The notes below the pieces were generated by a model. That model was not told the DNA's origin. It did not search any database and saw nothing but the letters and a program-made list of their open reading frames with translations. Below, piece by piece: positions 7,534 to 11,186 of a stretch of DNA of 11,186 nt (position 1 is its first letter; every line of letters begins with the position of its first letter). Origin of the DNA: a virus (taxonomy: Duplodnaviria; Heunggongvirae; Uroviricota; Caudoviricetes); the IMG/VR virus record IMGVR_UViG_2671180603_000013, positions 1 through 11,186 of that record; one strand, written 5' to 3'. Both the position numbers and the translations under genes were made by a program.

Positions 7534-7547
7534 CACTTATTTTCCCT

Positions 7548-7573
7548 GGCTCGCTTTTGCGGGCCTTTTTTTT
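7548..7573 (+). terminator. intrinsic terminator after tRNA cluster 2
   Basis: Stem GGCTCGC/GCGGGCC (one G-U pair), TTTT loop, followed by eight T. Confidence 0.6.
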
Positions 7574-7580
7574 AAATGTC

Positions 7581-7795
7581 TCACAATTCAGACGGTTGAC
7601 AGTTGTCTGTTTTGCGGGGAGTTTGTTAAAAGAAACTGGCATGGTGAATCCCCCTGTGCGGAGGGGCAATCAGCGAGTAGGTATATGGGATAATCGCGGA
7701 TTCAGGTGCTGGTACTGAATTCACCGGGAGGCACCCGGCATCATGCAATGGCACATAGCGCCACTCTCCAGCCCTCTCCGGAGGGGCTTTTCTGT
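7581..7795 (+). ncRNA. RNA-like cassette B (near-identical to cassette A)
   Basis: Same 5' motif (CTCACAATTCAG, TTGACA 7596-7601), same core, terminator 7770-7794. Confidence 0.4.
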
Positions 7796-7982
7796 GCCGG
7801 ATACATCACAGTTTCTGGAACCTTAGGTACTACAGTATCAGTCAGGGTGCTATATTTTCAGATGTGATGAAAGCCTGTCAGCAGGCAGGGCGTATCGGAA
7901 ATGACCCAGTAGAGAAAACGTTGACTCAGATACCGGTGCTGAGTTACCGGGAAACCGGCATCACATGACCGCTATCCTTCCA

Positions 7983-8010
7983 GGCCCATCCGCTCCGGTG
8001 GGCCTTTTTA
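7983..8010 (+). terminator. intrinsic terminator in the spacer between cassettes B and C
   Basis: GGCCCA...TGGGCC stem followed by TTTTTA. Confidence 0.5.
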
Positions 8011-8046
8011 CTGCAGAAAACAGGTTCCCCGTTAAATGCTATGTTG

Positions 8047-8280
8047 CTCACAATTCAGTAAGTTGACAGTTGCCTGTCAGACTGGGCATTTGTTAAAAAA
8101 ATTTCGCATGGTGAATCCCCCTGAGCGGAGGGGCGACTGGTGACGGTATAATCTCTGATTATCAAAACGAGAATGACGCGGGTTTAGTGGCACCGGGCTG
8201 AACTCACCGGGAGGCACCCGGCACCATGTGCATGATGATACAGATACGCGGCTTTAGCCCCTCTCCGGAGGGGTTTTCTT
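8047..8280 (+). ncRNA. RNA-like cassette C (diverged paralog of A and B)
   Basis: Conserved 5' motif (CTCACAATTCAG, TTGACA 8064-8069), conserved GCATGGTGAATCCCCCTG and CACCGGGAGGCACCCGGCACCATG blocks, diverged middle containing TGnTATAAT, terminator 8255-8279. Confidence 0.4.
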
Positions 8281-8285
8281 GTGGG

Positions 8286-8314
8286 CAAAAAAAGCCCGCG
8301 CTGGGAGACGCGGG
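8286..8314 (-). terminator. minus-strand intrinsic-terminator-like hairpin
   Basis: A7 run, then perfect 7 bp stem GCCCGCG/CGCGGGC with 8 nt loop; on the minus strand this reads hairpin followed by T7. Confidence 0.35.
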
Positions 8315-8508
8315 CGGCAAGGAATAAACAATAAAACGTGAAGTAATATTTCAGCTGGCGAATAATACCCCATAGTAATCACTCTGCGCAACTGCGCGGT
8401 CTTTTTCGAATTGCGGGCTGTCGTCTCTCTTCTGCCATTGTCCTGTAACTTCCGGACTTCAGCCCGCTCCTTATTTTACTCACAATATTATCCCGGCCGG
8501 GAGGATTC

Positions 8509-10362
8509 ATGGCATTTAAACACTATGACGTGGTCAGGGCGGCATCGCCGTCAGACCTTGCGAAACGACTGACACAAAAACTGAAGGAGGGCTGGCAGCC
8601 GTTTGGTAGTCCGGTGGCCATAACCCCTTATACCCTGATGCAGGCGATTGCAGCAGAAGGTGATGTGGTCGTCAGTGGTGCAACTGAGCCGGAGTGGTAC
8701 TACGTCATCGTACTGGCCGGGCAATCCAATGCCATGGCTTACGGTGAAGGTCTTCCGCTTCCGGATTCATACGATGCGCCCCATCCGCGCATTAAGCAAC
8801 TGGCCCGTCGTAACACAGTGACTCCCGGTGGTGAAGTATGCGTATTTAACGACATCATTCCTGCTGACCATTGTCTGCATGATGTTCAGGATATGAGTAC
8901 GATTAACCATCCCCGGGCTGACCTGAGCAAAGGGCAGTACGGCTGTGTCGGACAGGGCTTACATATTGCCAAAAAACTGCTTCCGTATATCCCTAATAAT
9001 GCGGGGATCCTGCTGGTACCATGCTGTCGTGGTGGTTCGGCATTCACCCAGGGCACGGAGGGGACATTCAGCGAGTCCACGGGGGCCAGTCAGGATTCGG
9101 CTCGCTGGGGAGTGGGTAAGCCGTTATATCAGGATCTGCTTTTCCGCACGAAGGCAGCATTGCAGAAAAACCCGAAAAACGTTTTGCTGGCGATATGCTG
9201 GATGCAGGGGGAATTCGATATGACGAATGCCAGTTACGCCCAGCAGCCAGCAGCATTTCTTGCAATGGTACAGCAGTTCCGTGCTGACCTTGCCGGGCTG
9301 GCGGCGCAGTGTCACGGTGGAAGTCCGGCATCAGTCCCCTGGATTTGTGGCGACACGACATACGCGTGGAAACAAGAACACGGTACGCAATATGAAGTGG
9401 TATATGGTGCATATAAAGGTAAAGAATCCCAGCAGATTTATTTTGTTCCCTTTATGACCGATGGTAGCGGAGTTAATACACCGACAAACAACCCGTCAGA
9501 AGATCCTGATATTGCCGGGTCTGGTTATTACGGTTCGGCATCCCGAACGAACAAAAACTGGGTATCATCAAATCGCCCGACGCATTTCAGCTCATGGGCG
9601 CGTCGTGGCATTATTCCCGATCGTATGGCAACTGCTATTCTGAACGTAGCCGGTCGCACCTTAGCCTTCATTAGTGGTAAGGCACCGGAAATCAAACCCT
9701 CGCCCGGCGGCGACACGCCATCGGGGCCGTCTGAAGATGCATCCATACGCACAATCTCCCTGTTGCCGACAGCCGGAGACGCTGCTGCGCAGGGCTGGAG
9801 CATTAAGAATGGCGGAGTTCAGTTGTCAGATGGTGTATTTAAGATCACCAAGCAGAGCAATAAAGCCTGGTCCCTGACGCGCCCGGTGGATGACGCAGTC
9901 TCCCTGCTGACACGGGGTGGCAGACTGAGCTGTAAGTTTCGACTGTCAGGCGCACTGACCACCAACCAGTTCGGTCTGGGAATTTATCTGTATACCGATG
10001 TAGCGTTACCTGACGTCGTGGCGATGACCGGGACTGGTAACCCGTTCCTGATGTCGTTCTTCACCCAGACCACAGACGGCAAACTGAATCTGATGCATCA
10101 CAAGAAAGCAGGAAACACAAAGTTGGGCGAGTTCGGGAATTACAGTAACGACTGGCTGACGCTGGAGCTGGTGTTCACCGCCGGCAGTGCCACGGTTACT
10201 CCGAAACTGAATGGAGTGGCTGGCCCGGCATTCCAGGTCATAAAAGACAGTCTGACACTGGGGCTGAATGCGCTGACGCTGACGGATATTACCAAAAATG
10301 CAGCGTATGGCGTTGAGATAGAAAGTCTGGTGCTGGAGATAAATGCACCGGCATCATCATAA
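8509..10362 (+). CDS. prophage sialate O-acetylesterase, NanS-p type (N-terminal DUF1737-like segment plus SGNH/SASA esterase domain)
   Basis: 617 aa. GQSN esterase motif (VLAGQSNAMAYGE) near residue 70; large C-terminal domain. Ribosome-binding site GGGAGGA just upstream. Recalled as the conserved gene downstream of stx in Stx phages. Confidence 0.85.
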   Translation: MAFKHYDVVRAASPSDLAKRLTQKLKEGWQPFGSPVAITPYTLMQAIAAEGDVVVSGATEPEWYYVIVLAGQSNAMAYGEGLPLPDSYDAPHPRIKQLARRNTVTPGGEVCVFNDIIPADHCLHDVQDMSTINHPRADLSKGQYGCVGQGLHIAKKLLPYIPNNAGILLVPCCRGGSAFTQGTEGTFSESTGASQDSARWGVGKPLYQDLLFRTKAALQKNPKNVLLAICWMQGEFDMTNASYAQQPAAFLAMVQQFRADLAGLAAQCHGGSPASVPWICGDTTYAWKQEHGTQYEVVYGAYKGKESQQIYFVPFMTDGSGVNTPTNNPSEDPDIAGSGYYGSASRTNKNWVSSNRPTHFSSWARRGIIPDRMATAILNVAGRTLAFISGKAPEIKPSPGGDTPSGPSEDASIRTISLLPTAGDAAAQGWSIKNGGVQLSDGVFKITKQSNKAWSLTRPVDDAVSLLTRGGRLSCKFRLSGALTTNQFGLGIYLYTDVALPDVVAMTGTGNPFLMSFFTQTTDGKLNLMHHKKAGNTKLGEFGNYSNDWLTLELVFTAGSATVTPKLNGVAGPAFQVIKDSLTLGLNALTLTDITKNAAYGVEIESLVLEINAPASS

Positions 10363-10512
10363 AAAGTGAGCCAGCCAAATGGAAGGTATCGTTAAACTCA
10401 CCGGTAGTGTCAGTGGGTCGTCTGAGATGCCTGCATGAGTTATCAGAGCCATCAGTACTTAACTGGTGGCTTTTTTTATTGTTGTCAGCTTCCGGATAAC
10501 GGGAGACGGGGT

Positions 10513-10728
10513 ATGTACCAGATGGAAAAAATCACAACAGGTGTGTCATACACCACGTCAGCGGTGGGAACGGGCTACTGGTTCCTGCAGTTGCTGGACA
10601 GGGTTTCCCCGTCTCAGTGGGCGGCAATAGGCGTGCTGGGGAGTCTGCTGTTTGGGCTGCTGACATATCTGACTAACCTGTATTTCAAAATCAGAGAGGA
10701 CCGTCGTAAGGCTGCACGGGGAGAGTAA
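10513..10728 (+). CDS. class II holin / pinholin (phage 21 S-like), dual-start motif
   Basis: 71 aa, [10 protein letters not shown]...[50 protein letters not shown]. Two start codons three codons apart (antiholin/holin arrangement); GGAGACGGGG ribosome-binding site. Closely resembles my recollection of S21. Confidence 0.85.
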
Positions 10729-10732
10729 TTCA

Positions 10733-11047
10733 ATGACTCAAAACTATGAACTGATTGTGAAAGGGATCCGCAATTTTGAGAATAAAGTTACGGTAACTTT
10801 AGCGTTACGGGACAAAAAACGCTTTGACGGTGAAATTTTTGACCTGGACATCTCGCTGGACCGTGTTGAAGGTGCCGCGCTGGAGTTTTATGAGGCAGCA
10901 GCCAGAAGGAGCATCAGACAGGTCTTCCTGGATGTTGCTGCCGGGTTATGTGAAGGGGACGAGCTGTTGCCAGAAACGCGCCCCTGTTCAGAGGCGCGGT
11001 ATACCATAAAAATTAACAGTTCTGATAACTCGATTACGGGTTGTTAG
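10733..11047 (+). CDS. small protein between holin and endolysin (YdfR / DUF1327-like)
   Basis: 104 aa, tightly packed after the holin stop. Size and position match ydfR of the Qin prophage (recalled, not verified by alignment). Confidence 0.55.
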   Translation: MTQNYELIVKGIRNFENKVTVTLALRDKKRFDGEIFDLDISLDRVEGAALEFYEAAARRSIRQVFLDVAAGLCEGDELLPETRPCSEARYTIKINSSDNSITGC

Positions 11048-11102
11048 CTTTTTGCAGTTGGCTTTCCAGTATCTTTCATTGGTAGCATCCTGATAAATAT
11101 CC

Positions 11103-11186
11103 ATGAGCGCAAAAATCAAATACGGCCTGTCAGCTGCTGTTCTGGCGCTGATTGCAAAATGGCATCTGAATCGATCGCAGTTTGGC
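11103..11186 (+). CDS. 5' end of probable endolysin (runs off the window)
   Basis: MSAKIKYGLSAAVLALIA matches the N-terminus I recall for lambdoid prophage lysozymes (RrrQ-like); sequence then diverges (KWHLNRSQFG). No clear ribosome-binding site. Confidence 0.4.
   Translation, partial: MSAKIKYGLSAAVLALIAKWHLNRSQFG

Follow-up and report, generated by a model that had tools for sequence, protein, structure and literature searches.

What does an esterase gene of the kind that follows the Shiga toxin (stx) genes in Stx phages do at a locus where no toxin genes are seen? The question is raised by nanS-p, the gene at 8509-10362 of an 11,186-nucleotide (nt) stretch of DNA recorded as a virus of the Caudoviricetes (IMG/VR record IMGVR_UViG_2671180603_000013, positions 1 to 11,186), and this whole stretch is hereafter called the window. 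A first-pass annotation had read the locus as an stx-less variant of the cargo slot of Stx phages, in which the esterase had been retained. Our analysis makes it very probable that the gene would encode a functional prophage NanS-p at the standard late-region position of a lambdoid prophage in a non-Shiga-toxigenic type of Escherichia coli, that the stx slot is filled by tandem STnc100 cassettes, and that the doubled layout of the window is a product of scaffolding. The coordinates of the features are collected in Table 1.

The open reading frame (ORF) of nanS-p begins with an ATG at 8509, ends with its stop codon included at 10362 and encodes 617 amino acids (aa), exactly as first described, and a Shine-Dalgarno-like GGAGG is located 5 nt upstream of the ATG. 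Three Pfam families were matched by the protein, each above its curated cut-off, i.e., the N-terminal DUF1737, SASA (aa 66-262, E=1.4e-12, 48.2 bits against a cut-off of 24.8) and DUF6645 (PF20350, aa 467-577, E=3.4e-19). In the PDB sequence search, aa 59-379 were aligned to the esterase NanS/YjhS (3PT5, E=4.3e-122) and aa 421-613 to the C-terminal domain of a phage NanS-p known from its crystal structure (6YP6, E=4.3e-30). The assignment to the SASA/SGNH family was thus confirmed together with the GQSN motif, which occupies residues 71-74, and by its sequence the gene product is a full-length NanS-p-type esterase of three domains. The sequence and location features of a NanS-p are found together here, namely a SASA/SGNH type II domain, the Ser/His dyad with its Gln, both flanking domains and a location in the late region.

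The catalytic residues can be followed one by one. In NanS, Ser19 and His301 form a dyad, Gln18 contributes to the oxyanion hole and there is no catalytic Asp (PMC9063846); Gln72, Ser73 and His359 of the window protein align with Gln18, Ser19 and His301, and the Ser-His spacing in the chain is recorded as the same as for Ser19/His301 in NanS (282 residues). Block IV reads RPTH (with His359), as in the NanS-p of Stx2 phage 86. When compared with three Stx-phage alleles, the catalytic domain has a ratio of nonsynonymous to synonymous substitution rates (dN/dS) of 0.15-0.19, and purifying selection, as judged by this ratio, acts on it. The same protein, 100% identical, is present in at least four draft assemblies, and, of the four aromatic positions in the C-terminal domain of phi24B for which sugar binding has been proposed, three are aromatic in the window protein (F488, Y493 and F518).

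The absence of the toxin genes was equally clear. When Stx2A and Stx2B from two phages and Stx1A and Stx1B were compared by tBLASTN with all six frames of the whole window, the best match reached 27.3 bits (E=0.006), while on a positive control phage these queries gave 659 and 186 bits, and 4 of 300 shuffled queries scored at least as high as the 27.3-bit match. This marginal Stx2A alignment (8277-8113, minus strand) contains three gaps and a stop codon and lies inside STnc100 cassette #3, so it was rejected as a chance match. At the nucleotide level, a comparison with the stx2 region gave two matching flanks and nothing between them, and the ORF list holds no ORF of StxA size between the tRNAs and nanS-p. 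Neither a remnant of stx nor a scar of its deletion was found in the window at the protein or the nucleotide level, and the arrangement of a Stx-converting prophage, with stxA and stxB between Q/tRNAs and nanS-p, is not present. It follows that stx is absent from the window, as the lack of stx-like A/B ORFs had suggested at first sight.

The site at which stx2AB is placed in Stx2a phages can be located in the window, where it runs from a terminator to an STnc100 element and is filled with other sequence; in this respect, the proposal of the same cargo slot without stx was sound. At its left edge, 34 nt (7541-7574) match the Stx2a phage sequence L002 (4629-4662) at 91% and the homology ends there; Stx2a phages share the same hairpin, which in them is followed by the stx2 promoter region. 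At its right edge, 8048-8277 is 87% identical to L002 5999-6233, the element 3' of stx2B, and STnc100 was found directly 3' of stxB in three Stx phages (L002, L008 and L009), so that, on sequence grounds, cassette #3 is the ortholog of the copy after stxB. The copies 5' of nanS-p form a tandem array where stx2AB sits in Stx2a phages. Three copies in the window score above the RF02076 gathering score of 47 bits and the degenerate one (7838-8011) below it, although this one carries a terminator hairpin of its own at 7982-8005 (terminator scan). From these comparisons, a conserved frame is read as tRNAs, terminator, a first variable part, STnc100, a second variable part and nanS-p; the first variable part amounts to 473 nt in the window (one STnc100 and one degenerate cassette), and in loci of the AF39/ST131 type it measures 0.64 kb and contains a DUF3927 ORF, with iraM standing between the small RNA (sRNA) and nanS-p. 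The slot is clearly delimited in this comparison, by the tRNA terminator on the left and STnc100 on the right; phages with the toxin have stx there, and non-toxigenic prophages have sRNA cassettes or small ORFs. Both STnc100 and the related PasD have been described as prophage sRNAs tied to esterase genes and Stx-type phages (bioRxiv 10.64898/2026.05.13.724894).

Complete genomes place this arrangement in its context. Nucleotides 6088-10984 gave a single collinear 4.9-kb match, with 98.2% identity, to the closed chromosome of avian pathogenic E. coli (APEC) O18 (NZ_CP006830.1), where DUF968, RusA, Q and a hypothetical gene lie 5' of the methylase, lysozyme, Rz, terminase and portal genes lie 3', and stx is not annotated. 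The segment from the tRNAs to the start of nanS-p (7440-8560) was matched over its full length, with 99.2-99.3% identity, in 352 complete E. coli genomes, mainly of extraintestinal lineages, including the type strain ATCC 11775 and the uropathogenic strain NU14. Of the 5,426 complete E. coli genomes, 2,393 contain DNA similar to nanS-p, which in 1,392 of them is nearly full-length, and a single genome may have up to 13 such places. Since nanS-p is far commoner than stx, it looks like a standard gene of the late region, in which stx seems to appear only now and then; phages of this group commonly carry nanS-p as a module, and the slot has several alternative occupants, stx being one of them. 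Published work also places nanS-p in non-Stx prophages and describes the alleles found there as active esterases on 5-N-acetyl-9-O-acetylneuraminic acid (Neu5,9Ac2) which confer a growth advantage (PMC10462455, PMC8065619). The stx-less arrangement is thus already known, both from closed genomes (APEC O18, ATCC 11775, ST131) and from these reports, and the locus, expected at first to be useful for studying how the slot exchanges its contents, adds little in that respect. As a discovery it carries little weight, because stx-less prophage NanS-p has been described and assayed and the exact arrangement stands in closed RefSeq genomes.

The late region is ordered as (Q-hypothetical gene)-DNA methylase-tRNA Ile/Arg/Arg-slot-nanS-p-holin-lysis genes. 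As a mechanism, we propose that nanS-p shares its transcription with the lysis and other late genes, which would start at pR' and, under Q antitermination, pass through the tRNA and sRNA terminators, as collinear genomes and published alleles suggest. Terminator-like sites are enriched in the stretch (20, against 7.1 +/- 2.6 in shuffles; terminator scan). Under phage-inducing conditions, nanS-p is co-induced with stx2a (PMC10462455), and by analogy the window gene may be co-induced with the lysis genes. With Ser73/His359 as its dyad and Gln72 helping to form the oxyanion hole (the part played by Gln18 in NanS), the protein would then cleave off the 9-O-acetyl group of mucin-bound or mucin-derived Neu5,9Ac2, and the product, N-acetylneuraminic acid (Neu5Ac), could be catabolised and feed surviving lysogens. 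The C-terminal lectin-like domain probably targets glycans, while DUF1737 may tether NanS-p to the capsid, as in phi24B gp84.

Several points weigh against this interpretation. In many relatives, e.g., ATCC 11775, nanS-p is truncated to a DUF1737 pseudogene, unlike the intact window copy. The contiguous piece of the window that bears nanS-p carries no Q, and the dependence on Q is read from collinear complete genomes; in a simple scan, no promoter specific to nanS-p was seen and promoter-like sites were not enriched over shuffles. The fourth of the proposed binding aromatics is Leu584 in the window protein, its C-terminal domain is just 36% identical to the crystallised type, and esterase activity on Neu5,9Ac2 is known from other NanS-p alleles only (PMC8065619).

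A different role can be considered for the same gene, in which nanS-p would be chiefly a virion structural gene (a capsid decoration and self-processed esterase) and its presence without stx would reflect morphogenesis or mucus adherence. Cryo-electron microscopy and proteomics placed the NanS-p of phi24B (gp84) on the capsid through DUF1737 (bioRxiv 10.64898/2026.04.10.717836), in a type of decoration protein whose DUF1737 attaches to capsid hexons and whose esterase is then freed by proteolysis; the window protein has this domain with 95% identity to the DUF1737 of a Stx2a-phage NanS-p, and the gene stands in the late operon beside the lysis genes. On the other hand, the only phage with demonstrated capsid binding is phi24B, a T=9 podovirus, while the APEC O18 prophage has its own set of terminase, portal and head-tail-joining genes; the SSP-type linker motif of gp84 is missing, as there is no 'SSP' in the window NanS-p; and a place on the capsid is compatible with the esterase and growth-advantage role that has been shown experimentally (PMC8065619). 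We therefore regard a chiefly structural role as possible but doubtful, and keep to a functional esterase as the principal reading.

As to how the slot came to be filled, it could be hypothesized that the interval from the terminator to the STnc100 head (TCACAATTCAG...TTGACAGTTG) is a defined cassette-exchange site, occupied by the stx operon (approx. 1.3 kb), by a module with DUF3927 or small ORFs (approx. 0.64 kb) or by STnc100 cassettes (approx. 0.47 kb), with the repeated sRNA cassette heads as the substrate for recombination. We consider this unlikely on balance; if true, sRNA arrays would be the default cargo and toxin operons would have entered by the same mechanism. The strong STnc100 copies share a sharp start (TCACAATTCAG...TTGAC) and a GC-rich hairpin end (CCCCTCTCCGGAGGGG).

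The second variable part deserves a separate word. After STnc100, the minus strand encodes AsxR in phage 86 and AgvB in one Stx1a phage; both anti-sRNAs were sought in the window and neither was detected. The corresponding position in the window is 8287-8375 on the minus strand, and, judged by this location, it could hold a candidate antisense sRNA not yet described. A strong minus-strand terminator hairpin was observed from 8315 to 8294 (GCCCGCG...CGCGGGC followed by seven T), and a match to the OmrA-B-like Rfam family over 8287-8375 on the same strand was weak (25 bits, E=0.025) and is not taken as evidence.

The integrity of the window itself has to be considered next, since the first-pass annotation had treated it as one locus. 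By exact-protein look-up, the window is the entire 11,186-bp record CXDK01000149.1 of draft assembly GCA_001252175.1, and the public record differs from it at two positions, 2232 and 6087, where the record has N and the window A. The window is thus a scaffold of three pieces. At the end of piece 1, the Q gene is broken off after 207 nt (69 codons). After 2232 there are approx. 350 nt derived from an insertion sequence (IS), and beyond these come the 3' end of a replicative helicase gene and ORF85-RusA-Q. Many genomes and plasmids contain IS-associated DNA (annotated as IS2-family and IS21 istB neighbourhoods) that matches the IS-derived part (2233-2581) at 97-99%, and this part is probably the IS end that caused the contig break. 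At the end of piece 2, a nanS-p start (6045-6086) is cut off; it has four mismatches to 8508-8549 and is a second copy, because these four positions differ from the start of the full gene, while beyond 6087 the sequence is that 5' of the methylase gene and the nanS-p frame has ended. The apparent truncated genes, Q' (2026-2253) and nanS-p' (6045-6086), and the doubled RusA-Q module can be seen as products of the joins.

The opposite possibility is that the window is one true contiguous locus, i.e., a tandem duplication or recombinant of the late-regulatory module with a double cargo slot made by illegitimate recombination, which would read RusA-Q' / RusA-Q-tRNAs-sRNA-iraM-nanS-p' / methylase-tRNAs-sRNAs-nanS-p. 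The scaffolder did set the three pieces side by side with single-N gaps, the same record was found in two samples, there are a few bases of possible microhomology at 6087, and tandem lambdoid prophages are known, e.g., the 89-kb Stx2_EH1910 record. Yet both restarts of the module fall exactly on the sole two N positions, neither the 2232 nor the 6087 junction is spanned in any of the 5,426 complete E. coli genomes, and the two ends of piece 2, IS-derived DNA at the start and a multi-copy gene at the other end, are places where contigs typically break. In addition, two sibling drafts (L005 and L006) have the same identical NanS-p with the modules in other orders and an N gap at each module junction, and in L005 the second nanS-p copy runs on and is interrupted by an IS3-family transposase (L005 4849-5837). 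These drafts show a strain group with several near-identical lambdoid late regions which short reads are unable to resolve. A true contiguous locus is accordingly highly improbable in our view, and the candidate junction at 6086/6088, at first taken as real illegitimate recombination with microhomology, was dropped because the two N positions of the public record are exactly 2232 and 6087.

The doubled Q-tRNA-sRNA layout is probably made of scaffolded pieces of two or three similar prophage regions, and neither the double locus nor the 'truncated nanS-p fused to a methylase' is probably real. This has a cautionary value, as gap characters swapped for bases produced an apparent double Q-tRNA-sRNA-nanS-p locus. 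It also divides what was first claimed of the framework: Q, tRNAs and nanS-p are all present, but as one locus they would cross the gap at 6087; likewise, the intervening RNA-like cassettes, the methyltransferase and the AT-rich gene all exist, but cassette #1 and iraM lie on another piece than nanS-p. Contiguity with the intact nanS-p (6088 onward) is limited to the methylase, the tRNA triplet and the STnc100 cassettes, while Q, the first tRNA pair, STnc100 #1 and iraM are on the other scaffold piece, and their apparent linkage to it crosses the gap.

It is likewise highly improbable that the locus is a decayed Stx prophage with stx deleted and the esterase left over. Both flanks of the slot are homologous to those of Stx2a phages, and Stx2 phage 86 has the phage allele nearest to this nanS-p; yet no stx fragment was found at the protein or nucleotide level, the slot holds 473 nt of organised STnc100 sequence with no scar, this sequence is fixed in identical form among 352 complete genomes, mainly from extraintestinal lineages, and nanS-p is much commoner than stx. 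The word 'retained', which implies a loss of stx, is for this lack of a remnant or scar, and for the far wider spread of nanS-p, not appropriate.

Table 1. Features of the window, with the evidence or content on which each entry is based.
Feature	Position	Strand	Evidence or content
Piece 1	1-2231		Rem-NinE-DUF968-RusA-Q'
Scaffold gap, piece 1/piece 2	2232..2232	.	N in public record
Piece 2	2233-6086		IS remnant-ORF85-RusA-Q-tRNAx2-DUF3927-STnc100-iraM(-)-nanS-p'
Q antiterminator, 284 aa (piece 2)	3329..4183	+	Pfam PF03589, E=7e-55
tRNA pair CAT, Arg-TCT (piece 2)	4286..4538	+	ARAGORN
STnc100 cassette #1 (piece 2)	5235..5424	+	Rfam, 132.4 bits
iraM-like anti-adaptor gene (PmrD family), AT-rich (piece 2)	5450..5785	-	Homology to iraM
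Second nanS-p copy, first 42 nt	6045..6086	+	Self-BLAST, 90.5%
Scaffold gap, piece 2/piece 3 (nanS-p-bearing)	6087..6087	.	N in public record
Piece 3	6088-11186		methylase-tRNAx3-STnc100 cassettes-nanS-p-holin-YdfR
N6/N4 DNA methyltransferase, 352 aa	6185..7243	+	Pfam PF01555, E=8e-42
tRNA triplet CAT, Arg-TCG, Arg-TCT	7284..7533	+	ARAGORN, Rfam, homologous RefSeq loci
Terminator-like hairpin and T-run after last tRNA; left slot edge	7548..7573	+	Terminator scan
STnc100 cassette #2, at stx2AB position	7610..7799	+	Rfam RF02076, 123.6 bits
Degenerate STnc100-like cassette	7838..8011	+	Rfam, 30.1 bits, E=1.7e-4, below gathering score
STnc100 cassette #3; right slot edge	8077..8286	+	Rfam, 161 bits
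nanS-p, intact prophage sialate 9-O-acetylesterase (by homology)	8509..10362	+	ORF list, Pfam, PDB search
DUF1737 N-terminal domain	8515..8658	+	Pfam PF08410, aa 3-50, E=1.3e-15
SGNH type II / SASA catalytic domain	8683..9645	+	aa 59-379, aligned to 3PT5
C-terminal lectin-like jelly-roll domain (DUF6645)	9769..10347	+	aa 421-613, 6YP6
Class II (P21-type) holin S, start of lysis cassette	10513..10728	+	Pfam PF04971, E=2e-32; gene call; RefSeq relatives
YdfR/DUF1327 family gene	10733..11047	+	Pfam PF07041, E=5e-39

The methylase, which is the first gene on the contiguous piece with nanS-p, is 94% identical in aa sequence to that of Stx2a phage EH1910, and Q of piece 2 is 91% identical to Q of the same phage; 150 nt separate nanS-p from the holin gene S. 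The two tRNAs with a CAT anticodon (4286-4361 and 7284-7359) were called Met by ARAGORN and are tRNA-Ile in homologous RefSeq loci. Both would be lysidine-type, ileZ-like genes, comparable to the tRNAs described 5' of stx in phage 933W.

On piece 2, the iraM-like gene has 73% aa identity to the annotated iraM of phage EH1910 and a GC content of 0.32-0.35; its surroundings are 98.9% identical at the nucleotide level to the AF39 locus, where the RefSeq name is 'anti-adapter protein IraM'. A Pfam scan of this ORF returned nothing at E<=0.01, and PF11183 is on record for the product. The tRNAs of piece 2 stand directly after Q (4184-4285), and a 1.5-kb block of loci of the AF39/ST131 type (L001 5166-6693), consisting of a 65-aa hypothetical gene and the DNA methylase, is missing; the methylase therefore behaves like a cassette that can be present or absent between Q and the tRNAs. 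Between the tRNAs and STnc100 of this piece there are a 117-aa ORF without a Pfam match (4649-5002) and a 43-aa DUF3927 ORF (5038-5169), and this segment is the same as in AF39 (98.9% nucleotide identity).

When compared with known systems, the chromosomal NanS (YjhS, 3PT5) has a homologous catalytic domain and shares the Ser/His dyad and the Gln of GQSN with the window NanS-p, but lacks the DUF1737 and lectin-like domains and belongs to the chromosomal nan regulon and not to a prophage late region (PMC10462455). Alleles of the 933W type (z1466/L0105; phi24B vb_24B_21/gp84; yjhS of Stx2_EH1910) have the three-domain architecture of the window protein. Their identity to it is 61% overall, because the C-terminal region is of a different type; by domain, it is 95% in DUF1737, 74% in the catalytic domain and 36% in the C-terminal region. 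In these phages nanS-p stands between the stx slot and S, as in the window; unlike the window, they have stx2AB, and iraM lies between the sRNA and nanS-p, which is not so 5' of the window copy. The order in Stx2_EH1910 is rusA-Q-hypothetical gene-DNA methylase-tRNA Met/Arg/Arg-stx2A-stx2B-iraM(-)-yjhS(nanS-p)-...-holin, so that the 933W/EH1910-type allele comes after stx2AB and iraM.

The description of nanS-p as the gene which follows stx was borne out by the closest phage alleles, which are located directly 3' of stx2B or stx1B. Of these, orf3 of phage 86 (YP_794050.1; 'NanS-p sequence 20' of PMC10462455) has 92% aa and 95.7% nucleotide identity to the window gene, and yjhS of Stx1a phages, directly after stx1B, has 85% aa identity. 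In phage 86 the protein is 631 aa as annotated, and its gene lies approx. 0.5 kb after stx2B in the order stx2A-stx2B-STnc100-AsxR; RPTH is common to both proteins and a class II holin comes after both genes. By region, the two proteins are 94% identical in the catalytic and 96% in the C-terminal part, with just 64% in DUF1737, and the window DUF1737 most resembles that of the AF39 allele and of alleles of the 933W type (95% aa), while for the other two parts phage 86 is the nearest. This per-domain divergence points to mosaicism of nanS-p at the level of domains.

The nearest counterparts of this nanS-p locus are, in the end, the prophages of extraintestinal pathogenic E. coli, from which, apart from the intactness of the esterase, it hardly differs. 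APEC O18, ATCC 11775, NU14 and other strains of this group have the same order, methylase-tRNA Ile/Arg/Arg-esterase-holin-YdfR, without stx, and although the esterase is cut to a DUF1737 pseudogene in ATCC 11775 and many others, the APEC O18 esterase (WP_000874516.1) is of 617 aa and differs from the window NanS-p at 3 aa. In the APEC O18-type locus, approx. 975 nt without coding sequence (the STnc100 cassettes) lie between the tRNAs and the esterase, just as in the window.

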